A stretch of DNA of 49,546 bases from a virus, in the IMG/VR virus record IMGVR_UViG_3300038438_000005; one strand, given 5' to 3'. The translations under genes were made by a program, and so were the position numbers. Position 1 is the first letter of the stretch. Each line of letters begins with the position of its first letter. This document shows positions 2,493-49,427 of the stretch, piece by piece. The notes beneath the pieces are model-generated. The model worked only from the letters and a program-made list of their open reading frames with translations. It ran no database searches and was not told the origin of the DNA.

Positions 2493-5042
2493 CTAGCGGG
2501 CGATGCCCAGTGGATCTAGGTAGCTTTGTGATGGCCGGACAAGGAATTTCTGGCCGTTTTCTTGTTGGATGCGCTGCTCTGTTCTACGCAGTGAACCTGG
2601 GTTCATGGCCTCTTGCACCGACCACAGGAACAGGTGGTCCATGGCGATACGCGTGTAGAACAGGTTCAAGAACGGGGTGTTGTTCTGGGCCAAGCGCATG
2701 GCTGACGAAGCGGCGTCATCACCAGAACGAACCTTGGCCCACAGGTCAATGAGGTTTGAGGCGGTTCCCAAGGTTGGCCCTGCCAGGCTTTCCAGCGGCT
2801 TGTTGCCGAATCGGCTGACCTCTCCAAACATGAAGTCACCCATGATTCCGAACCCGCCACCTTGCGTCATTGCGGCGATCCAGGTCTTGGGGTCATCTGC
2901 CGGCCGTGGCTCACGGCCTTTCACTGCATCCTTTGCGGACATGGATAGGTAGCCAAAGGCCGTAGTCCACAACATCAACTGGGCCATGGCCAGGCGCTCA
3001 CCGTTACCATTGCGCAGGGCGGCTATCAGATCCTTGCTGCCACGGTAACCCTCGCCAAGCGGGGTAGGCGCGTACCCACGCCCATACAACTCCCGGCCCA
3101 TGGTCTTTTGCATGTACGCGGCCGGGAAGCTCTTGAACTGAGTCATGAATCGGTTGAGTTCGCCCATGACCGTGCCAGGCCGGGTGCCTTGGTTCATGAT
3201 TGAGCGCGTGCGAGCGTCCGGCTCCAGCACTGCATAGCTGACCCGGTCGTTGACGTAGGCCCGCAGGCTGCGCTCCAGGCCTTCGCGGGTTTCGCGGATA
3301 GCCGCATCAGAAACCTTGCGGCCCTGGGCTGACAGGTAATCGCCGATGCTCTTGTCTGGAATACCCGGAATGCCGTCGGTGGTCAGGTAGTCCCGGCCAT
3401 CAGCCATGCGGGTATCCATCGAACGCAGTAGATCCCACTTGCCGGCGTCCAGGTCGTAAAGACCAAGCGTGCGGCGCAGGCCTTCGTCCATCGCCCCCCA
3501 TGCCCGCCCTTTGTTCTGGGCCAGGTTGTGGGCCATCATCAGGCCGGCGCTAGCCTTGTTGGCATCAGTCCACCAAGACAGGCCGTTGAGCTTGAAGAAA
3601 AGCGACATCCCCCGCGACATCTTACCGCCAACAGAGTCATCGGCCGAAAAGCGCCGCATGATCTCCCCTCGCATTGCATCCCCATAAACCCCAAAGCTCG
3701 ATAGGATTTCACGCTGCTCCAGGCTGCCACGCCCTTTGACCAGGCCGGCAGTCATTTCCCCCAGCGAACCCAGGAAGCTCTTGCCCTGATACCTCATTTC
3801 ACTGGCGGCAACAGGAAGGTCCGTAAAGCTCGACAGCAACGCGCCACCCAGCTTTGACAGTGACTGCCAAGCCCGCACGTTGGCGGACACCCTGGCGCCC
3901 CAAGCGCTGCCAGGTATACGGGTTGCACCGCTGACCTCGGCAAAGCGGTTGGCGATCATGTTGTCGCGCGCCGTGTTGAAGTTGGTCAGGGCTATTGGGT
4001 CTCCAGACTTGCGCACATCCTCGGCCAGAATATCCATGGCCATGTTGAGGTTGGACTCTGGGTTTGTTCCCAGACGCCGCATAATCCCGGTGTTCTGACC
4101 AGCCATATCCAGGCCGCGCAATACAGACTCTCGCAGGTTGCCGGTTCCGAACATCGTGTTGTATTCGTGCCAAGCTACGCCATCCTTGAAGTGCAGCACC
4201 CGTTCTTGGCTGATCTTCTTGGCGATGTTTGCCGGGCCTTTGAAGCCATTGGCTGGGGCGTCTTTCGGCGCCTTGAGGTGATCGCCAGACACCAGTCCGT
4301 CATATACGCCACGCAGGAACTGAGTAGGGTTGGAAACATCCTCAAAGGTGCGGGGGTCCAGCCGTGGCTGAATTTCTTCCAGCCACTTGTCGAATCCTGC
4401 AGACCCGATCTTCTCCCCGTCGTGGCTTTGCCGAGCAATGTATCCAGGCAGGTCGCCGATGTTGGCGCCGGCGCGGTTCGCATCAATGCGCGCCGCCTCC
4501 TGATATTTCTGGATGGTCTTGGCAATTCCGACCACCTGGTCATTCAGCTTTGATGTGTCCTGCTTGGTCCCGATCTTCCAAAGTGCATCGGCGATATCGA
4601 CATCCGAATCGCCCTTGGCCAGGATTCCGGTGAGGTCTTGACGTTCCAGGTCGTGGATCAAACCACCGATATAGGCGTCACCCAGCGCTTTCTGCTCGGC
4701 GGCTACCGACATGCGTGAACCTTGGCGGGCCAGGTTGGTGCCCACCAGCAGCGATTCAAGGCCCAAGTCTGGCCGATCTGCAAAGCTGCCACGCACAAAG
4801 GATACAATCTCGCCCCGACGGCGCAGGTTGAGCAAAGCGTTTCGCTTCTCGATCAGCGCTGCGTGCTGGGCCTGCTTGCCCAGCTCGTCTGCGGCGCGCA
4901 GGGTGGCCTGTTCCATACCAAGCGCACCCTCGCGGGCCATCAGTTCCTTGGCCCTGCCACGCAACAGTTCGAAGATCTCAGCCACTTCTCTGTCTTCCAG
5001 ATTGCCAGCAGCAGCACGAACAGCATCTATGCAAGGTGTCAT
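2493..5042 (-). CDS. Large internal virion/ejection protein (T7 gp16-position)
   Basis: 849 aa. Its ATG overlaps the upstream stop as ATGA at 5039-5042. Its position just before the tail fibre fits podovirus core-protein order. No enzymatic motif was recognised. Confidence 0.5.
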   Translation of the reverse strand: MTPCIDAVRAAAGNLEDREVAEIFELLRGRAKELMAREGALGMEQATLRAADELGKQAQHAALIEKRNALLNLRRRGEIVSFVRGSFADRPDLGLESLLVGTNLARQGSRMSVAAEQKALGDAYIGGLIHDLERQDLTGILAKGDSDVDIADALWKIGTKQDTSKLNDQVVGIAKTIQKYQEAARIDANRAGANIGDLPGYIARQSHDGEKIGSAGFDKWLEEIQPRLDPRTFEDVSNPTQFLRGVYDGLVSGDHLKAPKDAPANGFKGPANIAKKISQERVLHFKDGVAWHEYNTMFGTGNLRESVLRGLDMAGQNTGIMRRLGTNPESNLNMAMDILAEDVRKSGDPIALTNFNTARDNMIANRFAEVSGATRIPGSAWGARVSANVRAWQSLSKLGGALLSSFTDLPVAASEMRYQGKSFLGSLGEMTAGLVKGRGSLEQREILSSFGVYGDAMRGEIMRRFSADDSVGGKMSRGMSLFFKLNGLSWWTDANKASAGLMMAHNLAQNKGRAWGAMDEGLRRTLGLYDLDAGKWDLLRSMDTRMADGRDYLTTDGIPGIPDKSIGDYLSAQGRKVSDAAIRETREGLERSLRAYVNDRVSYAVLEPDARTRSIMNQGTRPGTVMGELNRFMTQFKSFPAAYMQKTMGRELYGRGYAPTPLGEGYRGSKDLIAALRNGNGERLAMAQLMLWTTAFGYLSMSAKDAVKGREPRPADDPKTWIAAMTQGGGFGIMGDFMFGEVSRFGNKPLESLAGPTLGTASNLIDLWAKVRSGDDAASSAMRLAQNNTPFLNLFYTRIAMDHLFLWSVQEAMNPGSLRRTEQRIQQENGQKFLVRPSQSYLDPLGIAR

Positions 5043-37927: not shown

Positions 37928-38449
37928 GTGTCCAACGAATCGAAAACCCACTTCAAGAAGGCATTCAACAGCCCCTACTTGAGCAGTGCCGACATCGTCG
38001 GTCACATGACCTTCACCGTGGCCCGCGTAACGCTGGAGGTGGACAAGACGAAGAAAACAAAGGACCTGTTCAACACGGCCTACTTCGTCGAGCGCGAGAT
38101 CCGCCCAGGCGAAAAGCTCAAGCCGATGATCCTCAACGTCACCAACAGCAAGACCATGAAGGCGCTGACCAACTCACCATTCATTGAGGACTGGCAGGGG
38201 ATCAAGATCACCGTGTACGTGGATTCGAACGTGAAGTTCGGCCGCGAGGTGATGGAAGGCCTGCGGATCAGCCCCAAGGCGCCGACGGTTGCATGGTTGA
38301 CGCCTGAAGTCGCAAGGCCCTGGGCCAATGCCAAGGCCGCGTATAAGCGCGACGGCAACCTGGACGCTGTTCTCGCCCGGTACTCAATGACAGAAGAGAA
38401 CCAGCAAAAGCTGATCAAGGAGTGCTCCGATGAATCGGCAGTGGCATGA
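37928..38449 (+). CDS. Hypothetical protein upstream of the exonuclease (possible recombination partner)
   Basis: GGAGAG lies 5 nt before the GTG at 37928. 173 aa. No annealing-protein motif was recognised. Confidence 0.4.
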   Translation: MSNESKTHFKKAFNSPYLSSADIVGHMTFTVARVTLEVDKTKKTKDLFNTAYFVEREIRPGEKLKPMILNVTNSKTMKALTNSPFIEDWQGIKITVYVDSNVKFGREVMEGLRISPKAPTVAWLTPEVARPWANAKAAYKRDGNLDAVLARYSMTEENQQKLIKECSDESAVA

Positions 38450-39053
38450 CGTTGAGCAGAACACCGAAGTATGGCAGCAGCTGCGAACCGGCAAGGTGAC
38501 GGCATCCAACGCTGGCTGCTTCATGGCAAACGGTGATGCTGCATTCGGGGAGCCTGCCAAGAAGTACGCCTTGCAGATCGCTCTGGAGATCGCCACCGGC
38601 CGCAAGGCTGAGTTCAGCTTCTCCAATGACCACACCGAGCGCGGTCATGAGCAGGAGCCAATCGCCAGGATGCACTACGAGGACGCCGAGTTCGTAACCG
38701 TCACCAACGGCGGGTTCTTCGACTGCGGCGACCATGGCGACTCTCCAGACGGCCTCATAGCCACTGACGGAGTGCTTGAGATCAAGTGCGTCACTGCCGC
38801 GGTGCATTACGCCAACCTCAAGCGCGAATCATTCGACCCGGCCTACCGCTGGCAGTTGGTCAGCCACCTGGATTGCACCGGTCGCGACTGGGTCGACTTC
38901 GTCAGCTTCTGCTCTGAATTCCCCGAGGCAAGCCAGCTCATCGTTTACCGGTCAACCCGTAACGACTTCAAGGAAGAGCTGCTGCGCCTGGCCGAACGCC
39001 GCGCCAAGTTCATTGAACTGGTCCAGACAACACTGAAAAGCATCCCGAGGTAG
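38430..39053 (+). CDS. YqaJ-type viral recombinase exonuclease
   Basis: The N-terminus is W.QLRTGKVTASNAG. It also has the PD-(D/E)xK-like core DGLIATDGVLEIKC. Confidence 0.75.
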   Translation: MNRQWHDVEQNTEVWQQLRTGKVTASNAGCFMANGDAAFGEPAKKYALQIALEIATGRKAEFSFSNDHTERGHEQEPIARMHYEDAEFVTVTNGGFFDCGDHGDSPDGLIATDGVLEIKCVTAAVHYANLKRESFDPAYRWQLVSHLDCTGRDWVDFVSFCSEFPEASQLIVYRSTRNDFKEELLRLAERRAKFIELVQTTLKSIPR

Positions 39054-39058
39054 CGATC

Positions 39059-39655
39059 ATGATCAGCATCCTCCGCAACGAAGTAGAGCGCCTGCGCCCT
39101 GCCCAGGAAGAACTTGCCGCCCAGGTCGCTGAGTTTGTGGCGGCCGGCGGGCGGATTGAGGAAGGCCCGGCCAGCGGCTACATCCCCAAGCCAATCACCT
39201 ACAGCAACCAGATGCCGCCGGCGCCCAAGCCGTTTGTTCGGCGGAAGGTTGAAGCGCCTCCGCCACTGAAGGCCGATCCCATAGACCCTAGAGCTGACAG
39301 GCGAGCCAAGCAGGCCGAACAAGCGAAAGCCTTGGCAGCTACGCACACGCAGACCGAAGCGTGTTTCGCCTTGGGCATGACGAGCAAAACCGTAAAGGCT
39401 CTGGCAAAGGACTTCGGCTTTACCTTCAAGCGCTCAACGCACGGTGGGTACAACGGCCCGGAGCGGAAAAAGGAAATTGCTGCGCGCGATGCCAAGTTCG
39501 CCGAGCGAATCAAGGCGTTCAAGGAGCTTGGATTATCGCGGCGAGTGGTTTGCGGAAAGCTTGCGATATCGAACAGAACGCTGGACCGCATTCTGATCGA
39601 GTACGACATCGACTATCCAAAATTACGACTTGGAAGCCGAGCATGCGCCGCATAG
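39059..39655 (+). CDS. Hypothetical protein with a C-terminal HTH-like region
   Basis: 198 aa, Pro-rich in the middle. The C-terminal part reads GLSRRVVCGKLAISNRTLDRIL. Confidence 0.5.
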   Translation: MISILRNEVERLRPAQEELAAQVAEFVAAGGRIEEGPASGYIPKPITYSNQMPPAPKPFVRRKVEAPPPLKADPIDPRADRRAKQAEQAKALAATHTQTEACFALGMTSKTVKALAKDFGFTFKRSTHGGYNGPERKKEIAARDAKFAERIKAFKELGLSRRVVCGKLAISNRTLDRILIEYDIDYPKLRLGSRACAA

Positions 39656-39724
39656 CCCGCACCCAGCAACGCAAACGTCAAACCTGGCTCGCACTGCCGG
39701 CCAGCGGAATAGAAGAGGTAGGCC

Positions 39725-40036
39725 ATGGCTGCCGCGCAGAAAGACCGATCGGCAAAGACTGCGGCGAGGCGAAAGACTCGCGGCGAGGAAGAATTGCGAC
39801 TCCACACTATGGCCGGCACCCGCCAGGCCTTGGCTGACCTGATGGCCTGGCACGGCATCGAGGAACAGGGCGAGGCCATGACCTTGATGATTCACCACCT
39901 GCACGGCCTGGGCCCGTCGGGATCGGCTCAGTTTCTCGCGCCGCCGCGACACAGTTATGTGATACCCGAAAACGTGTCGGCAAAACTGCAGCTCGCCTAC
40001 AACCGCGAAGCCCTTCGCATCTGCCACGACGAATAA
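39725..40036 (+). CDS. Hypothetical protein
   Basis: 103 aa, with AGAGG upstream. Confidence 0.5.
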   Translation: MAAAQKDRSAKTAARRKTRGEEELRLHTMAGTRQALADLMAWHGIEEQGEAMTLMIHHLHGLGPSGSAQFLAPPRHSYVIPENVSAKLQLAYNREALRICHDE

Positions 40037-40094
40037 CCCACCCTACTCGCTGCATCCGGTAACGCGGAGGGCGGCGCTTACCCGAGGAACACTG

Positions 40095-40706
40095 ATGAAA
40101 GCCAAGACAATTTCTATCGAGGCTGACGGCCTCAAAATCAAAGGCACTGCCGAACGTATGATTCAGCTGCTCGCGGCTAGCTTGTTTGTGCATGCTCTGC
40201 CACCGGCCGCGAATGTTAAGCCGGTAGTTGCGTCAGCCGTTCCTAAGATCGGCCAGACTTGGCCAGGCCAGGGCGGTATCAATGGCGGATTCGTTCAAGC
40301 TCGCGGTGACGTCCCAGCGCATTACCTGATCTTCGCCGCAAAAGATGTTGGCAGCCTTGAATGGGGTGGCCGTGGAGTCGAGGTGAAGGGCCTCAGCAAG
40401 ACCGACGGCCTCACCAACACCCAGGTGCTGATCGGCAACGATGACGAGCGTCAGTATCCCGCCGCCAACGCATGCGCCGAATACCAGGCCGATGGTCATC
40501 ACGACTTCTACCTGCCGGCCGCTGCCGAGCTGTACCAGGGGTGGCTGAACTGCCCCGAGGTATTCGATCAGGACTGCTATTACTGGTCGAGTTCGCAGCG
40601 CTCAGCCTACCTCGCATTCTACGTGGACTTCGGTGATGGCAGTCAGGGCTTCAGCGACAAGCACTACGAGCTCCGTGTCCGCCCCGTCCGCAGATTCTTT
40701 ATTTAA
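40095..40706 (+). CDS. DGR target protein 1 (C-type-lectin/DUF1566-like) with VR1 at its C-terminus
   Basis: GAGGAA lies upstream. The product has IGQTWPGQGGINGG near the middle and ends YYWSSSQRSAY...ELRVRPVRRFFI. The last 35 codons are VR1. Confidence 0.85.
   Translation: MKAKTISIEADGLKIKGTAERMIQLLAASLFVHALPPAANVKPVVASAVPKIGQTWPGQGGINGGFVQARGDVPAHYLIFAAKDVGSLEWGGRGVEVKGLSKTDGLTNTQVLIGNDDERQYPAANACAEYQADGHHDFYLPAAAELYQGWLNCPEVFDQDCYYWSSSQRSAYLAFYVDFGDGSQGFSDKHYELRVRPVRRFFI
40593..40697 (+). repeat. DGR variable repeat 1 (VR1)
   Basis: 105-nt alignment to the TR (41983-42087). There are 15 mismatches, and every one is at a TR adenine. Confidence 0.9.
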
Positions 40707-40741
40707 TCCTTCATTCATTCGTTCTTGATCCGGCACACCAG

Positions 40742-40760
40742 GGCGCACAGCGCCTTTTTT
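40742..40760 (+). terminator. Hairpin plus T-run downstream of VR1
   Basis: GGCGC-ACA-GCGCC followed by TTTTTT. The stem is short, so the call is weak. Confidence 0.4.
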
Positions 40761-40785
40761 GTTGCCTTCGAAAAGAGGAAGCACC

Positions 40786-41400
40786 ATGTCCGCAGTTGAG
40801 AAAGCAGCAGTAACCATCCCGGAAATCGGCCAGGCCTACGGCGGCGGATTCGTCACCGGCATTACCCGCGACCCGTCCACCGGCAAGCGCTCCCTGCACA
40901 TCACCGCCGGCGCAGCGCATGAGCTGGTCGGCAAGTGGGGCGAGTACGGCGAGAAGATCGAAGGCGCCGATAGCTTTACCGACAGCCTGGCCAACACCCA
41001 GGCAATGGCAGCGGCAGGCAGTGATCTGGCAGCAAAGGTGCTGGCCCTGAACATCGAAGGCCACACCGACTGGGCAATCCCGGCGCGGGATGTGCAGGAG
41101 CTGCAATACCGCCACTTCAAGCCGACCACCGAAGAGAACTGGGCGAGCTCGCGCAATGGCGACAACCCAAACAGCGAGCCTGTAGGCCTGCTGTACAGCG
41201 AAGAAGACCCGGTGCAGACCATCCACACCGAGTTCCAGGAAGGCGGCGCTGAAGCGTTCCGTGACACCTGGTACTGGTCATCCTCGCAGCGCTCAGCCTA
41301 CGACGCATTCAGCATGGGCTTCGATGATGGCGGTCAGGGCGACAACGACAAGGACAACGAGCTCCGTGTCCGCCCCGTCCGCAGCGAGATTATTGATTAA
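40786..41400 (+). CDS. DGR target protein 2 (paralogue, C-type-lectin/DUF1566-like) with VR2 at its C-terminus
   Basis: AGAGGAAG lies before the ATG at 40786. The product has IGQAYGGGFVTG near the N-terminus and ends WYWSSSQRSAY...ELRVRPVRSEIID. Confidence 0.85.
   Translation: MSAVEKAAVTIPEIGQAYGGGFVTGITRDPSTGKRSLHITAGAAHELVGKWGEYGEKIEGADSFTDSLANTQAMAAAGSDLAAKVLALNIEGHTDWAIPARDVQELQYRHFKPTTEENWASSRNGDNPNSEPVGLLYSEEDPVQTIHTEFQEGGAEAFRDTWYWSSSQRSAYDAFSMGFDDGGQGDNDKDNELRVRPVRSEIID
41284..41384 (+). repeat. DGR variable repeat 2 (VR2)
   Basis: 101-nt alignment to the TR (41983-42083). There are 11 mismatches, all at TR adenines. Confidence 0.9.
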
Positions 41401-41414
41401 TTCGTTTATTTAAT

Positions 41415-41432
41415 CCGGCCGCTTGCGGCCGG
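41415..41432 (+). promoter_or_regulatory. GC hairpin downstream of VR2 (candidate DGR target-recognition hairpin and/or terminator)
   Basis: CCGGCCG-CTTG-CGGCCGG, a 7-bp GC stem with a 4-nt loop, 31 nt after the VR2 end. Confidence 0.45.
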
Positions 41433-41454
41433 TTGCTCTTGGAGAGCGAGCCAC

Positions 41455-41811
41455 ATGGCAATGCATACGGAACTTGCGATCTACAAGGCTTCAATGGGGC
41501 TGCTGCACATGGCCACAACGATGACCCGGAACATCCCCCGCGACCTGAAGCAGTCACTCGGCAAGCGAGTGATCGACGAATGCATCGAAGTGCTGATGCT
41601 GATTGCCCGCGCCAATGCCACCCAGGACAAGCGGCCACACCTCACCCTGCTGGTCGAGAAGGTGCAGGTAGTCGAGTTCCTGATGCGGCTCTTCAAAGAC
41701 AACCGCTTTATCAGCATCCCGCAACACGCCCAGGCAATTGAGGTAACGGCCTCAATAGGCAAGCAAGCAAACGCCTGGAAACGCTCCACCCCCACCGCGC
41801 CCGCTACCTGA
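41455..41811 (+). CDS. avd: DGR accessory variability determinant (Avd, four-helix-bundle family)
   Basis: 118 aa, helical and basic. NIPRDLKQSLGKR and SIGKQANAWKR parallel the bAvd-type pattern. It sits between the targets and the TR, and GGAGAG lies upstream. Confidence 0.75.
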   Translation: MAMHTELAIYKASMGLLHMATTMTRNIPRDLKQSLGKRVIDECIEVLMLIARANATQDKRPHLTLLVEKVQVVEFLMRLFKDNRFISIPQHAQAIEVTASIGKQANAWKRSTPTAPAT

Positions 41812-41982
41812 AGGTTAAGGCTTTCTGGTCTGTGCGAATTGAATCTGGTCGTGCCGCTGACCTCTGGGTCACCGCCATGCGCACAAGAGATACCGCCGGT
41901 CTAAAGCGTCCGGGCAGGTCTTGCGCAGTTTCCTTGCTGATCGGCTTTGCCTTCGGCCTGGCGACGTAGATAGCACGATAGG

Positions 41983-42087
41983 TCGCAGCGCTCAGCCAAC
42001 AACGCATTCAACATGAACTTCGATGATGGCAATCAGAACAACAACGACAAGAACAACGAGCTCCGTGTCCGCCCCGTCCGCAGATTC
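41983..42087 (+). repeat. DGR template repeat (TR)
   Basis: It is rich in AAC codons (read in the VR frame: NNAFNMNFDDGNQNNNDKNNELRVRPVRRF). It is homologous to VR1 and VR2 and lies immediately 5' of, and overlapping, the RT frame. Confidence 0.9.
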
Positions 42088-43183
42088 GACTTTGGGTCCC
42101 TACCCGTTTCAGGATCTGGTCCAGGCCTATTACGACTGCCGGCGCACCAAGCGCAACAGCGACAGCGCGCTGGCTTTCGAGATCGACCTGGAGCGGAACC
42201 TGATCCAACTACACGACGACCTGGTCAGCGGCAATTACCGCCCAGGCCGATCCATTTGTTTCGTGGTCACCAGGCCGAAAGCCCGCGAAGTTTGGGCAGC
42301 AGCCTTTCGGGATCGCGTCGTCCACCACCTGATGTACAACCATGTGGCACCGCGCTTTTACGCCAGCTTCATAGCGGACAGTTGCGCATGCATTCCAGGT
42401 CGCGGCACGTTATACGCCGCCACACGGCTTGAGTCGAAGATACGCAGCGCCAGCGAGAACTGGTCGAAGCCGATCTTCTACCTGAAGTGCGACCTGGCCA
42501 ACTTCTTCGTAGCCATCGATAAGGCCGTGCTGCGAAAGCAACTGGAAGCCAGGATAACCGAACCCTGGTGGCTGGCCCTGGCTACGCAGATCCTCATGCA
42601 CGACCCGCGCGAGGATTACGAGACGCGCAGCCCGGCGCACCTGTTCAACCGGGTGCCGCAGCACAAGCGCCTGGTTGCGCAGCCCGCCCACCTCGGCCTG
42701 CCCATCGGTAACCTGTCGTCGCAGTTCTTCGCCAACGTCTACCTCGATGCCCTGGACCAGTTCGCCAAGCATCGCTTGGGCGCCAAGCACTACATCCGGT
42801 ATGTCGATGACTTTGTGTTCCTGCATGAGTCACCGCAACAGCTCAACCAGTGGCTGGCCGAGGTCGAAGCGTTTCTGCCCAGGCTGGGGGCCAAGCTGAA
42901 CCCCACCAAGACGGTCCTGCAGCCCGTGGATCGCGGCGTCGACTTCGTTGGTCACGTCATCAAGCCTTGGCGGCGAACCACCCGTAAGCGGTCGCTGGCA
43001 CAGGCATTGAAGCGAACGGCCGCAGCACCAGCCGAGGATCTGCGCGAGACGGCCAATAGCTACTTCGGCCTACTCAGTCAGGCCAGCCACAGCGACAAAG
43101 ACCGGGCCGCACTCGCCCGCGTCGTGCTGAAGCGCGGCAATAGCGTCAACGCCGCGCTGACGAAGACCTTCCAGAAGAAGTAA
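42023..43183 (+). CDS. DGR-type reverse transcriptase
   Basis: It has the YVDD catalytic motif (HYIRYVDDFVFL) and the DGR hallmark IGNLSSQ (the I/LGxxxSQ motif). It also has FRDRVVHH. The true start is uncertain: ATG 42023/42026 lie inside the TR, and the in-frame alternatives are GTG 42065 and TTG 42092. Confidence 0.85.
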   Translation: MMAIRTTTTRTTSSVSAPSADSTLGPYPFQDLVQAYYDCRRTKRNSDSALAFEIDLERNLIQLHDDLVSGNYRPGRSICFVVTRPKAREVWAAAFRDRVVHHLMYNHVAPRFYASFIADSCACIPGRGTLYAATRLESKIRSASENWSKPIFYLKCDLANFFVAIDKAVLRKQLEARITEPWWLALATQILMHDPREDYETRSPAHLFNRVPQHKRLVAQPAHLGLPIGNLSSQFFANVYLDALDQFAKHRLGAKHYIRYVDDFVFLHESPQQLNQWLAEVEAFLPRLGAKLNPTKTVLQPVDRGVDFVGHVIKPWRRTTRKRSLAQALKRTAAAPAEDLRETANSYFGLLSQASHSDKDRAALARVVLKRGNSVNAALTKTFQKK

Positions 43184-43205
43184 CTCCCCACTCCACCGCC
43201 CGGGC

Positions 43206-43805
43206 GTGGCCCGGCAAGGACTCCCCATGCCTACAGAAAACCAAATCACCGCGCCGCTGCTGGTCGAGCGCTCGACAGTCACGAAGCTGGTTATCACCGG
43301 TGCGCCACAGCTTGATCCGATCACCGTCTTCCTCGAGGACTTAGCCCCACGCAAGGGCAAGATCACTGTCAGCTGCTGGGGTAAGAGCTGGACGGCGTCC
43401 TGGGGTGGAATGTGGGACGGCCTGAACATTGGCCAGTTTTTCTGCGAACTGAACGCCGGCTACATCATCGGCTACTTCGACCAGGCGATGGGCCCACGGC
43501 AGTTCAGTGGTGAGGCGCTTGCAAACAAAGTACAGGCTGCCGTGTTGAAGGATCGCCGGCGTGGTGAGCACGGCCAGTACGAAGCGCGCGAGCTGTTCAC
43601 CGAGGCTGAAGATCTTCGCGAATCGCCATCAATTGACCATCTTCACGGCGCGCACAGCGAACTGATGCACAAGATTTTTGGGGATGAGTGGTGGCATCTG
43701 ACCAACGATGCCACCGAGCCAAACCCCGATTACGCCTACCTCGAGCGGATCATTCACGCAGTGCAACAGGCGCTGCGCCAGGAACAGCAGCAGGAGGCAG
43801 CATGA
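43206..43805 (+). CDS. Hypothetical protein
   Basis: 199 aa (or a start at 43227), coupled to the next gene by ATGA. Confidence 0.5.
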   Translation: MARQGLPMPTENQITAPLLVERSTVTKLVITGAPQLDPITVFLEDLAPRKGKITVSCWGKSWTASWGGMWDGLNIGQFFCELNAGYIIGYFDQAMGPRQFSGEALANKVQAAVLKDRRRGEHGQYEARELFTEAEDLRESPSIDHLHGAHSELMHKIFGDEWWHLTNDATEPNPDYAYLERIIHAVQQALRQEQQQEAA

Positions 43806-47958: not shown

Positions 47959-48360
47959 ATGGCCAACACAAAGCTGGCGCCGGTCCTAGAGACCGCGCCG
48001 CGCTTCATCCGGGCGAAACACGCACCTACTTATCTCGGCATGTGTCGAGCGGTTTTTGACGAAACCGTCCGCCCCTGCGTCCGTGAGTTCCCAATTGGAA
48101 AACAGGGCGTTGCCTTCGACAGGCATGAGCTGGACCAGTGGGCAGACGCCTACGTCGAGCGCATGGCAATTGAAAAACAGACCAATCGGGACAACAATCC
48201 GCCCCGCAGTGGGCGCCTGGGAGAAAAACAATGGCGCGAAAAACAATGTCGGGCCTCTACGAGAGGAACGGGATTTGGCACATCGACAAAGTCGTCAGAG
48301 GTTGCCGACTTCAAGAAAGCACTGGAGCAAGCGAGAGGGAAGAAGCAGAGCAATACCTGA
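47959..48360 (+). CDS. Excisionase/AlpA-like DNA-binding protein (putative)
   Basis: The segment FIRAKHAPTYLGMCRAVFDETVRPCVREFPIGKQGVAFDRHELDQWADAY fits the winged-helix Xis/AlpA pattern. The open frame runs 130 nt into the integrase gene, so the true 3' end is uncertain. Confidence 0.5.
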   Translation: MANTKLAPVLETAPRFIRAKHAPTYLGMCRAVFDETVRPCVREFPIGKQGVAFDRHELDQWADAYVERMAIEKQTNRDNNPPRSGRLGEKQWREKQCRASTRGTGFGTSTKSSEVADFKKALEQARGKKQSNT

Positions 48361-49427
48361 TTCACCGGCTGGAAAAGCTCAGGCAGGAAAAGGTTTACGG
48401 AGTGCGACAGGTGCGAACCTGGCGTGAGGCCGCCACCCGATTCCTGGTGGAGTTCAAGGACCAGGCATCAATCAGTCTGTCCGCCTTACACATTGAGCAG
48501 CTGGACCCGTACATCGGGGATCTACCAATCACCCACATAGATGACGGAACCCTGGCCGCATTCAAGCGAGACCGACAGAAATCGACGACAAGCGAAACAG
48601 GGAAGGTAAAGCCAGGAGTATCGAACCGGACTGTCAACATCGCGTTACAGCGTATCGTTCGGATCTTGAACCTGTGCCACAGGAAGTGGCGAGACGCAGA
48701 GAAGCGGCCTTGGCTGGATAGCGTGCCGATGATCTCAATGCTGGAGGAGGCGAAGTCAAGCAGGAAGCCATACCCGATGTCCTGGGCTGAGCAGTCGATG
48801 CTGTTCTCTGAGATTCCGGATCACCTGTTGAGGATGTCACTCTACAAGGTAAACACCGGGTGCCGAGAGCAGGAAGTCTGCAAACTTCAGTGGGATTGGG
48901 AGATTAGGGTTCCGGAATTGGGAACGAGCGTGTTTCTGATCCCCGCTGATTTTGGCGGGAGAAGTGAAAAGTCAGGCGTAAAGAACGGCGACGAGAGACT
49001 GGTGGTGCTGAACAAGGTGGCGATGTCGGTCATTGATGGTCAGCGCGGCCTTAACTCAAAGTACGTCTTCCCCTATGGGCAGCCGGACGAGCGTGGTCCT
49101 ACCCCGATGCATCGGATGAATGACACGGCATGGAAGAAGGCCAGGGTGAGAGCCGCGGCGAAATGGGAGCTGGAGCATAAGTCGCCGGCACACCCTGGGT
49201 TCAGATCAATCCGGGTTCACGACCTCAAGCACACCTTTGGGAGAAGGCTACGTGCAGCAGGAGTGACACTGGAAGATCGGAAGGCGCTCTTGGGACACAA
49301 GAATGGCAGCGTTACCAGCCACTATTCTACCGCAGAGCTTGAGCAGTTGATCACGGAGGCAAACAAAGTGTCAGCGACTGATTCGCGCGGACCGGCACTG
49401 ACAATCTTGAGGAGGAAAACGGGATGA
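48231..49427 (+). CDS. int: Tyrosine integrase
   Basis: 398 aa with a C-terminal catalytic region (VHDLKHTFGRRL...LLGHKNGSVTSHY, giving the R...HxxR...Y pattern). It is adjacent to the tRNA-derived att repeat. The start is 48231 or 48246. Confidence 0.9.
   Translation: MARKTMSGLYERNGIWHIDKVVRGCRLQESTGASEREEAEQYLIHRLEKLRQEKVYGVRQVRTWREAATRFLVEFKDQASISLSALHIEQLDPYIGDLPITHIDDGTLAAFKRDRQKSTTSETGKVKPGVSNRTVNIALQRIVRILNLCHRKWRDAEKRPWLDSVPMISMLEEAKSSRKPYPMSWAEQSMLFSEIPDHLLRMSLYKVNTGCREQEVCKLQWDWEIRVPELGTSVFLIPADFGGRSEKSGVKNGDERLVVLNKVAMSVIDGQRGLNSKYVFPYGQPDERGPTPMHRMNDTAWKKARVRAAAKWELEHKSPAHPGFRSIRVHDLKHTFGRRLRAAGVTLEDRKALLGHKNGSVTSHYSTAELEQLITEANKVSATDSRGPALTILRRKTG

Follow-up and report, generated by a model that had tools for sequence, protein, structure and literature searches.

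The DNA analysed here (the window) is the 49,546-nucleotide IMG/VR virus record IMGVR_UViG_3300038438_000005, read as one strand from 5' to 3'. An integrase gene is located at 48231-49427, and genes for a large terminase, a head-tail adaptor, a tail protein, a DnaC-like loader and a YqaJ exonuclease are also present, in agreement with the prophage setting claimed in the initial annotation. Positions 40095 to 43183 hold two target genes with variable repeats (VR1 and VR2), an accessory variability determinant gene (avd), a structured RNA, a template repeat (TR) and a reverse transcriptase (RT) gene. The features are as follows.

40095-40706, plus strand: target gene 1, an ORF with a GAGGAA ribosome-binding site encoding a 203-aa DUF1566/Lcl_C protein, VR1 C-terminal
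40593-40697, plus strand: VR1, 105 nt aligned with TR, 15 mismatches, all on TR adenines
40698-40725, plus strand: AT-rich, 8-nt periodic [A/C]TTYA repeats 3' of VR1, a candidate target-recognition element (from conservation)
40740-40762, plus strand: GC-rich hairpin followed by a T-run, terminator-like, 43 nt past VR1, a candidate DGR hairpin/cruciform
40786-41400, plus strand: target gene 2, encoding a 204-aa DUF1566/Lcl_C paralog, VR2 C-terminal (ATG at 40786, GAGGAA ribosome-binding site)
41284-41384, plus strand: VR2, 101 nt aligned with TR, 11 mismatches, all on TR adenines
41385-41414, plus strand: AT-rich, 8-nt periodic repeats 3' of VR2 (from conservation)
41415-41432, plus strand: GC hairpin CCGGCCGCTTGCGGCCGG, 7-bp stem and 4-nt loop, 30 nt past VR2
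41455-41811, plus strand: avd, 118 aa (Pfam bAvd)
41795-41985, plus strand: RT-15 structured RNA (Rfam RF03018, covariance-model match), proposed equivalent of the BPP-1 spacer RNA (Sp)
41798-41836, plus strand: RT-15 5' hairpin, a covarying stem of about 10 bp with a tetraloop, over the avd stop codon
41839-41847, plus strand: proposed primer strand UUGAAUCUG, single-stranded in RT-15 and followed by G41848, pairing with 42081-42089
41849-41978, plus strand: P1 closing helix (41849-41854 with 41973-41978; Rfam structure and covariation), proposed stop-duplex equivalent
41983-42087, plus strand: TR, template for both VRs, identical in phage SC_8_H2H8_2017
42023-43183, plus strand: RT of the diversity-generating retroelement (DGR) type (Pfam RVT_1; IGNLSSQ and YVDD)
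42081-42089, plus strand: TR 3'-end segment CAGAUUCGA, pairing with the RT-15 primer strand

The three repeat copies were aligned and their mismatches tabulated by TR base. The coordinates, lengths and mismatch counts (15 and 11) given in the initial annotation were reproduced exactly, with positions 41983-42083 of TR as the counterpart of VR2. All mismatches (26/26) fall on an A of TR and the C, G and T positions are identical in VR1 and VR2; given the base composition, the probability of such a pattern arising by chance is 1.9e-9 for VR1 and 8.1e-7 for VR2. Both VRs are in frame with their target ORFs, and the altered codons are mainly AAC (to TAC, CTC, GAC, AGC, GGC, TTC and CAC), as had been claimed, together with ATG, GAT and AAT. 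The GC-rich GTCCGCCCCGTCCGCAG, a candidate IMH-like segment, is common to TR, VR1 and VR2, and the flanking sequence diverges immediately beyond it. Additional VR copies were searched for on both strands of the whole window and none was found. The TR copy lies outside any target ORF and adjoins the RT. One TR serves VRs at the C-termini of two paralogous DUF1566 proteins.

The two target proteins share 43% identity. Target 1 matched phrog_4245, and Pfam Lcl_C with E=3.7e-7 and 30.9 bits, which is under the gathering threshold of 34.9; its 888 homologs are named DUF1566 domain-containing protein, and PF07603 is found in homologs. DUF1566 has been reported as having the CLec fold (PMC6642488). 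Single-sequence searches of the PDB returned no match for target 1 or Avd, and a profile of target 1 gave a weak match to 8q4e (E=0.0024). The AF2 model of target 1, made from an alignment of 34 sequences, reached a pLDDT of only 45.5; the depth of the alignment was insufficient, as none of the top 120 homologs fell below 67% identity. Both targets lie in the early operon, distant from the tail genes, and are not Mtd-like tail proteins. On reading the sequences by eye, no signal peptide or lipobox was evident in the targets.

Across 33 non-redundant loci, AT-rich 8-nt repeats follow every VR and none follows TR. A hairpin or cruciform beyond the VR is a known DGR feature (PMC3240598), defined as a GC hairpin with a 4-nt GRNA loop at 4-34 bp from the VR. 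The loops of the post-VR hairpins found here (ACA and CTTG) differ from the GRNA consensus of phage DGRs, and the hairpins are missing in several relatives.

The 118-aa product of avd, described initially as Avd-like, passed the Pfam bAvd gathering threshold (48.4 bits against 40) and matched NCBIfam DivGenRetAVD with E=1.3e-13 and 51 bits, under the cut-off of 80. The YVDD and IGNLSSQ motifs of the RT were both found as claimed, and all ORFs of the cassette are intact, with the catalytic YVDD present. In PDB match scores the RT is closest to bRT, the RT of the Bordetella phage DGR (8ub7, E=7.8e-37), followed by a group II maturase (E=2.3e-10) and retron RTs (E=8.5e-5 or worse), which places it with DGR RTs rather than with retron or group II enzymes. 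The best NCBIfam matches were group II, retron and DRT models, all far under their cut-offs; since the NCBIfam search returned no DGR-RT family, its ranking of the RT carries little weight. To judge from the reading frames, the RT ORF probably starts inside TR, in another frame, at ATG 42023 or 42026; neither candidate is preceded by a Shine-Dalgarno sequence. The conserved core of the RT starts near 42092. TTG 42092 was considered as a general RT start and dropped because in several relatives (loci L079, L117 and L122) no start codon lies in frame between TR and this core.

The gap between avd and TR is filled by RT-15, which matched its covariance model over the full length (model positions 1-192) with 179.9 bits against a gathering threshold of 82. 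RT-15 adjoins TR in 13/13 diverged relatives, and compensatory changes were found at 37 of its 51 pairs. P1 encloses three stem-loops and a conserved GUAGAUA, and closes 4 nt 5' of TR. The proposed primer strand pairs with the TR 3' end with a probability of 0.96-0.99 in a single-sequence fold. In the alignment of relatives, 87.5% of the cells of this duplex are paired, against 24-43% in slid controls, and its covariation score is 0.294, whereas shuffles score 0.098 and 0/500 of them reached 0.294; pair 104:382 is UA in 16 cases, GC in 14, AU in 2 and CG in 1, and is never unpaired. At least 7 of the 9 positions are paired in 136/147 loci (permutation z=8), and in about 10 of 33 relatives the proposed duplex is interrupted by an A-C or G-G mismatch. 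A G follows the primer strand (G41848 here) and another occupies the predicted first template position (G42080 here) in 147/147 loci. In nearly all of the 155 VR-bearing loci only 0-23 nt separate the end of TR from the RT core, leaving no room for a non-coding spacer; in the window TR ends 4 nt ahead of the RT ORF or overlaps it. No match to RF03022 (Phage_DGR) was found in the window, and the alignment of relatives showed no covarying structure over the 170 nt that follow TR. A priming role for RT-15 is suggested by analogy and by covariation; the covarying helix could have a different role, for example in RNA stability, processing or control of RT translation. The RT-15 5' hairpin is a candidate analogue of the Avd-binding stem-loop (compare Sp3-33 of BPP-1), and the RT-15 stem-loops are proposed as Avd-binding or RT-binding elements.

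These features can be assembled into the following mechanism. The transcript would carry the 3' end of avd, RT-15, TR and the 5' end of the RT gene, with UUGAAUCUG (41839-41847) paired to 42081-42089. Because P1 closes 4 nt ahead of TR, the TR, of about 100 nt, would loop out between the primer/template duplex and P1. The RT-Avd complex would prime in cis from G41847, with G41848 in the role of Sp G57; copying would begin at G42080, misincorporate opposite adenines and halt at P1, and the cDNA would replace VR1 or VR2. Targets would be recognized through the common GC-rich end (...GTCCGCAG) together with the VR-specific 3' flanks, that is, the 8-nt AT-rich repeats and then the GC hairpin.

The BPP-1 DGR (mtd-avd-TR-Sp-brt; RF03022 Phage_DGR RNA) shares with the window an RT of the same clade, Avd, a single TR, a C-terminal VR, adenine-specific mutagenesis and a GC-rich 3' end common to TR and VR. 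A match to the order mtd-avd-TR-brt had been claimed for this locus; the gene order does resemble it, but the non-coding anatomy differs. In BPP-1, avd adjoins TR and a 144-nt spacer RNA separates TR from brt (as a control, RF03022 was located 3' of the BPP-1 TR), whereas here about 170 nt of RT-15, from another Rfam family, lie between avd and TR, and TR adjoins or overlaps the RT ORF. The single BPP-1 target is Mtd, a tail fibre protein encoded within the structural module, in contrast to the two small early-operon DUF1566 proteins found here, and 8-nt AT-rich repeats flanking the VR are not among the BPP-1 target requirements listed by Guo et al. The predicted RNA geometry is nevertheless BPP-1-like. 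In the BPP-1 ribonucleoprotein (RNP) the TR:Sp primer/template duplex adjoins the avd:Sp stop duplex; here a primer/template duplex of 7-9 bp at the TR 3' end would lie by the pre-TR duplex, the primer nucleotide would be followed by a G, and the first base to be copied would likewise be a G (BPP-1 requires G57 and G117). The arrangement would amount to a circular permutation, in which the protein-binding and priming RNA (Avd-binding hairpin, primer, stop-duplex strand and RT-binding stem-loops) would all lie 5' of TR, not 3' as in BPP-1, and the same transcript would run on as the RT mRNA, with an ORF that begins inside TR.

The locus could instead be a standard BPP-1-like DGR, with its priming and protein-binding RNA within the 5' coding region of the RT and with RT-15 only a 5' leader acting in transcript stability, processing or translational control of the RT. 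A survey in which putative Avd-binding stem-loops lay just 3' of TR in 207/278 Avd-containing DGRs is consistent with this, as is a small helix predicted by RNAalifold, in which GCAG at the end of TR pairs with CUGC inside the RT coding sequence. That helix, however, has just 4 bp and essentially no compensatory change, both of its sides are near-invariant and one encodes a conserved D-C-R, and nothing else is structurally conserved in the 170 nt past TR; the upstream pairing, on the other hand, covaries and adjoins P1 in the primer/stop-duplex geometry of BPP-1. A BPP-1-like layout is regarded as unlikely.

Relatives with an RT of this clade (66-98% identity) were found among listed phages of Pseudomonas (SC_8_H2H8_2017, MT121966; Cruim01, PP179333; Haboob; phPA-G; LPPA56), Burkholderia (phage Magia) and Shewanella (phage vB_Sb_QDWS). 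None of these seven is annotated as carrying a DGR; labels among the relatives include 'retron-type RNA-directed DNA polymerase' for the RT and 'hypothetical protein', and the paper describing Cruim01 leaves the RT unmentioned. SC_8_H2H8_2017 and Cruim01 carry the full cassette as in the window. The TR of the window and that of SC_8_H2H8_2017 are the same, while VR1 differs at 16 positions and VR2 at 13, all of them TR adenines; an identical TR alongside 29 VR differences indicates that the VRs turn over faster than TR diverges neutrally. Over 268 unique VRs from relatives, TR adenines were changed in 3523/8358 cases (42%) and other bases in 179/19345 (0.9%), so that the variation at template adenines expected among related prophages was borne out. 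In Cruim01, TR has four non-A substitutions, and both VRs carry all of them. TR is the source of the information and VR its recipient, and fidelity is lost only at adenines.

The VR differences among relatives record past activity, not present activity, and the element could be a decayed or domesticated DGR, intact in sequence, in which diversification has ended in this lysogen. In Aurca01, avd, TR and RT are all missing but both targets, diverged at adenines, are retained, so targets can persist without the machinery; a scan of 39600-43400 for sigma-70 promoters found no site, and the RT start has no obvious ribosome-binding site. Against decay stand the intact ORFs with catalytic YVDD, the TR shared with SC_8_H2H8_2017 while the VRs differ at 29 adenine positions, and the full conservation of RT-15 and of the primer pairing, which make it improbable. 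The last alternative is that the locus is no DGR: the three repeats would stem from gene conversion between paralogs or from their duplication, or the RT and RT-15 would make up a retron or some other defence RT system. It can draw on the 'retron-type' label of the Cruim01 RT, the sub-threshold NCBIfam matches and the speculation of Weinberg et al. (at least in the main text) that retrons account for many of the RT motifs. This reading is effectively refuted: the mismatches are confined to the adenines of a single copy (P about 1e-9), the third copy adjoins the RT outside the target ORFs, Avd is present, the VRs of relatives vary at template adenines, and the RT lies nearer to bRT than to either group II or retron RTs, by about 27 orders of magnitude. 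A retron identity was likewise rejected on the TR/VR pair, on Avd and on the retron RT matches of E=8.5e-5 or worse.

The DGR claimed in the initial annotation is supported by adenine-only mismatches, a bRT-like RT, Avd and two C-terminal VRs. The two checks put forward there as possible refutations, on the affinity of the RT and on VR variation among related prophages, both came out in favour of a DGR. The element is considered likely to be an intact DGR, probably active now or until recently and primed through the upstream RT-15, and carried by a lambdoid Pseudomonas prophage within its early operon (recombination/accessory).

The element type is already known, and the DGR clade is common and already catalogued; scans located it in 224 viral contigs and in the genomes of 130 species. 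DGRs of the Legionella pneumophila type (category 'd'; Wu et al., 2018, PMC5758913) have the same target class, DUF1566/CLec2; about half of the category-d targets are short, DUF1566-only proteins, and about 13% of DGRs have two-target cassettes (PMC5758913). Legionella LdtA is a surface lipoprotein, whereas the targets in the window are phage-encoded. Newly worked out here are the adjacency of RT-15 and TR, the base pairing between RT-15 and the 3' end of TR, and the analogy with BPP-1 in permuted order. The main text of Weinberg et al. (2017, PMC5737381) ties only RT-10 (BPP-1) to a DGR, and as far as that text goes the other RT motifs are left unassigned, with retrons or DGRs as speculation. 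In Rfam, RT-10 has been renamed 'Phage_DGR' and RT-15 still bears its generic name; window positions 41795-41985 are a full-length, high-scoring RF03018 member. A literature search for RT-15 together with Rfam matched no papers.

In a DPANN archaeon, Rfam RT-16 likewise adjoins a TR and pairs with the sequence that flanks this TR on the 3' side. DGRs with an upstream RNA may then be a widespread second architecture outside the BPP-1-based models. The wider proposal, which joins such an architecture to a circularly permuted RNA in RT-15-type DGRs and to target choice by the tandem 8-nt [A/C]TTYA repeats 3' of each VR (which would be a previously undescribed element), is on balance plausible.

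Pseudomonas is among the most DGR-rich genera, and of all domains in DGR targets DUF1566 is the most frequent. To our knowledge, what is understood of DGR priming all comes from one phage, BPP-1, in which the essential RNA lies 3' of the template. The value of the present locus lies in its layout, in which a very common clade has a structured RNA 5' of the template and covariation supports a BPP-1-type geometry. If this is confirmed, the conserved feature would be the geometry of the RNP and not the connectivity of its RNA, the orphan Rfam family RT-15 would gain a function, and DGR mutagenesis tools would gain a second compact design that needs no spacer between TR and RT. For annotation, RT-15 with an adjacent RT would flag a DGR and not a 'retron-type RT'. 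Finally, small, non-structural targets in an early operon raise the question of what else, apart from its tail, a temperate phage diversifies.

The window was found to hold a single repeat family, with three copies near 40572, 41263 and 41962; a search of the whole window for a further copy gave none. Base-by-base comparison returned the template repeat (TR) and two variable repeats (VR1 and VR2) proposed in the initial annotation, position for position and with the same mismatch counts. The repeats and the accessory genes are:

41983-42087 (TR) vs 40593-40697 (VR1), + strand: 105 nt, 15 mismatches
41983-42083 (TR) vs 41284-41384 (VR2), + strand: 101 nt, 11 mismatches
41455-41811, + strand: avd, 118-aa ORF; Pfam bAvd, 48.4 bits vs a threshold of 40
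42023-43183, + strand: ORF of the reverse transcriptase (RT); Pfam RVT_1, YVDD and IGNLSSQ motifs

The adenine-only pattern described earlier was also recovered: 26/26 mismatches fell on adenines of the 41983 copy, and C, G and T were identical throughout. The chance of all mismatches falling on A is 1.9e-9 for VR1 (33 A in 105 nt) and 8.1e-7 for VR2 (32 A in 101 nt). Each VR sits in frame at the C-terminus of its ORF (40095-40706 and 40786-41400), and the altered codons are for the most part AAC. The 118-aa protein, previously called Avd-like on sequence features, passed the Pfam bAvd threshold; its match to NCBIfam DivGenRetAVD (E=1.3e-13) was under the family cut-off. The closest solved structure to the RT was the Bordetella phage enzyme bRT (8ub7, E=7.8e-37), far ahead of a group II maturase (2.3e-10) and of retron RTs (8.5e-5 or worse), so that the RT does not side with either of the latter groups.

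Relatives were collected by RT scans, which yielded 224 viral contigs and the genomes of 130 species, mostly Pseudomonas and also including Janthinobacterium, Undibacterium, Gallionella, Sideroxydans, Methylophilus and others. VRs were located in 163 loci with an unbiased ungapped repeat finder; they were present in 155/163, and 133 loci had exactly two. Sorted by the TR base, this search counted 4032 mismatches at A, 27 at C, 161 at G and 42 at T. Among 268 unique VRs, 3523/8358 TR adenines were changed vs 179/19345 other bases; the VRs are thus neither invariant nor variable mainly off the template adenines. With the RT grouping with bRT and the VRs varying at adenines, the element is therefore a diversity-generating retroelement (DGR).

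The DGR cassette is common to three sequenced phages. In Pseudomonas phage SC_8_H2H8_2017 the TR equals that of the window, VR1 differs at 16 positions and VR2 at 13, and all of these differences are on TR adenines. The TR of phage Cruim01 has four non-A differences from that of the window, and the same four are found exactly in both Cruim01 VRs, which shows information flow from TR to VR. Phage Aurca01 keeps both target genes and has a RecB-like gene where avd-TR-RT would stand (PP179334, 4515-6334; RT-15, the structured RNA described below, is replaced as well). No RT of the window's clade was found across the entire Aurca01 genome, and 14/14 and 17/18 mismatches of its two VRs to the Cruim01 TR still fall on adenines. 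Aurca01 is a natural RT-less variant, explained either by recent loss or by targets served in trans. A third or fourth VR lies 2.9-4.4 kb upstream of the TR in six relatives (L117, L121, L122, L132, L136 and L141), and L122 has four VR-like copies; the clade is therefore able to serve remote additional targets. A Janthinobacterium sp. locus (L097, Betaproteobacterium) has an RT 88% identical to that of the window, nearly as close as the Pseudomonas relatives, and no VR was detected within its 11 kb; horizontal transfer, contamination or a remote target could account for this.

A full-length RT-15 RNA (Rfam RF03018), absent from the initial annotation, was found at 41795-41985 with 179.9 bits vs a gathering score of 82. 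It overlaps the final 17 nt of avd at one end and the opening bases of the TR at the other, and was present in 13/13 diverged relatives (RT identity 58-82%), ending within ~6 nt of the TR start. RNAalifold was run on alignment A1 (33 loci, made non-redundant at <88% identity); the RT-15 helices were recovered, with compensatory changes in 37/51 pairs, and the 170 nt 3' of the TR gave only an invariant 4-bp helix. From its 5' end, the window RNA has a ~10-bp tetraloop hairpin (41798-41836), followed by the proposed primer strand (41839-47), G41848 and the first strand of the closing helix P1 (41849-54). Three stem-loops, a conserved GUAGAUA, the second P1 strand (41973-78), UAGG and the TR follow in that order.

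The primer strand, the single-stranded and highly conserved UUGAAUCUG (41839-41847), has its complement, CAGAUUCGA, at the 3' end of the TR (42081-42089). In alignment A1, 87.5% of primer/TR cells were paired vs 75.5±1.3% in shuffles (0/500 shuffles as high), and pairing fell to 24-43% when the partner was slid by 1-3 columns. Covariation scored 0.294 vs 0.098 in shuffles; one column pair (104:382) was UA16, GC14, AU2 and CG1, with zero unpaired. Permutation of the non-redundant set gave z=8.0. At least 7/9 positions were paired in 136/147 loci, and a G was present both directly after the primer strand and just 5' of the paired TR segment in 147/147. In a single-sequence thermodynamic fold of 41795-42100, 41841-47:42081-87 had pair probabilities of 0.96-0.99 and stacked directly on P1 (41849-54:41973-78). 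The VRs were changed at 0/264 and 1/145 of the TR adenines at +2 and +4, and at 35-84% of those from -82 to -24, save those in conserved codons. This profile fits cDNA synthesis starting at G42080, although the test is weak, with few adenines between -21 and 0.

The arrangement was compared with that of the Bordetella phage BPP-1 DGR. There avd adjoins the TR (2887-3020), and the 144-nt spacer (Sp) between TR and brt (1756-2742) contains the Rfam 'Phage_DGR' RNA (RF03022, 2750-2882); the RNA thus lies 3' of the TR in BPP-1 and 5' of it in the window. The BPP-1 cryo-EM structure has a duplex of Sp47-56 and TR118-129 with 7 canonical pairs; A56 acts as the primer, copying begins at G117, and G57 is essential. 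The 'cPRT stop' duplex Sp59-70:avd369-379 forms two nucleotides further along, just 5' of the TR, which is looped out between the primer/template and stop duplexes; Avd is bound by an 11-bp tetraloop hairpin (Sp3-33) and bRT by a long 3' stem-loop. Both RNAs share the geometry of two duplexes with the TR looped out, a G following the primer and a G as template base. Connectivity alone differs (a-TR-AvdSL-primer-b-RTSL in BPP-1; AvdSL-primer-b-SLs-a-TR in the window), and the window order is a circular permutation of that of BPP-1. The duplexes and the invariant bases are demonstrated; by analogy RT-15 would have the priming role, and the stem-loops may be assigned to their protein partners in the same manner.

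The earliest in-frame ATGs of the RT, at 42023 and 42026, are inside the TR, in a reading frame different from that of the VRs. An ATG occurs at the matching TR position (-58 to -61 from the TR end) in at least 20/33 relatives; in L117 and L122 it is the sole canonical in-frame start, and in L079 no in-frame start was found between TR and the conserved RT core. Probably, then, the final ~62 nt of the TR are shared with the RT ORF, in which case the template repeat would also code for the N-terminus of the RT. No Shine-Dalgarno sequence was seen before the TR-internal ATGs.

The 3' flanks of the VRs contain two further elements:

40698-40725, + strand: tandem 8-nt repeats directly 3' of VR1
41385-41414, + strand: tandem 8-nt repeats directly 3' of VR2
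40740-40756, + strand: GC hairpin 3' of VR1
41415-41432, + strand: GC hairpin 3' of VR2

Two to five tandem [A/C]TTYA-NNN units were present immediately 3' of every VR in all lineages, third and fourth VRs included (window, L002 and L079-L161), and were absent 3' of the TR. Box-to-box spacing was exactly 8 nt in 60/92 intervals; TT autocorrelation peaked at lags 8 and 16 in VR flanks and not in TR flanks, and ATTYA occurred 1.78 vs 0.21 times per 45 nt. The requirements known for DGR targets, namely the IMH and a GC hairpin whose loop is GRNA, do not include AT-rich repeats; the 8-nt repeats are a possible new target-recognition or protein-binding element. A GC hairpin follows them in many lineages and is missing in several. 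The window's hairpins (40740-40762 and 41415-41441) also score as intrinsic-terminator-like, and may act as a partial terminator after each target gene, which bears on how avd, RT-15, TR and RT are transcribed. No sigma-70-like promoter was found in 39600-43400.

The DGR as such belongs to a well-known kind: in surveys, Pseudomonas is among the genera richest in DGRs, DUF1566 is the commonest target domain, ~13% of DGRs are two-target and half of DUF1566 targets are short. The variant with a permuted upstream-RNA layout, TR/RT overlap and VR-flank repeats was not found described. In Weinberg et al. (2017), RT-10 (BPP-1) is the one RT motif connected with a DGR, the rest being left open, and the survey of Handa et al. 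was limited to the 40 nt before and the 100 nt after the TR. Our literature search returned no paper naming RT-15 together with Rfam, and no description of a functional DGR RNA 5' of the TR. In a Woesearchaeota MAG (L163, 4736-4967), the end of Rfam RT-16 (RF03019) coincides exactly with the TR start, and ~20 bp of pairing are predicted between the 5' part of this RNA and the TR 3' flank (single sequence); RT-16 at this locus suggests that the upstream-RNA layout also occurs in DPANN archaea.

Several database records touch on the element. DGR-clade RTs are labelled 'retron-type RNA-directed DNA polymerase' in PP179333.1 (Cruim01_00044), OK094664.1 and KP063903.1, among other records; the sequenced phages with the element have either this kind of label or 'hypothetical protein'. 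The Cruim01 record annotates RT-15 beside the RT with the DGR unrecognised, and its description paper makes no mention of the RT. OK094664.1 (Shewanella phage vB_Sb_QDWS) and OP650936.1 ('Hujiaoplasma phage zrk29-1', host Tenericutes) are both 47,902 bp with identical RT match statistics, and seem to be a single genome submitted twice, with widely different hosts.

Both targets matched Pfam Lcl_C/DUF1566 slightly below the gathering score (E ~3e-7) and were assigned to phrog_4245; the majority of 888 homologs were titled 'DUF1566 domain-containing protein' and came from Pseudomonas. A profile of these homologs gave a weak PDB match (8q4e, E=0.0024). Because the AF2 model was unusable (pLDDT 45.5), the CLec fold of the targets is taken from the report of such folds for DUF1566 domains (PMC6642488). 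The prophage setting given in the initial annotation held: the window is a lambdoid prophage, in which exonucleases, a DnaC-like loader, the large terminase, a head-tail adaptor, a tail protein and a virion protein are encoded. The genes that bracket the DGR include:

38430-39053: YqaJ-type exonuclease, on one flank of the DGR
48231-49427: integrase, a prophage gene

A nucleoside deoxyribosyltransferase-like gene, a DNA methyltransferase and the integrase are on the other flank. The DGR thus lies in the rightward early operon, between the YqaJ-type exonuclease and the integrase side, and is therefore far from the tail genes. The target proteins have no evident signal peptide, as judged by reading the sequence. 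Together with the early-operon position of their genes, this would speak against a simple receptor-binding role of the BPP-1 kind.
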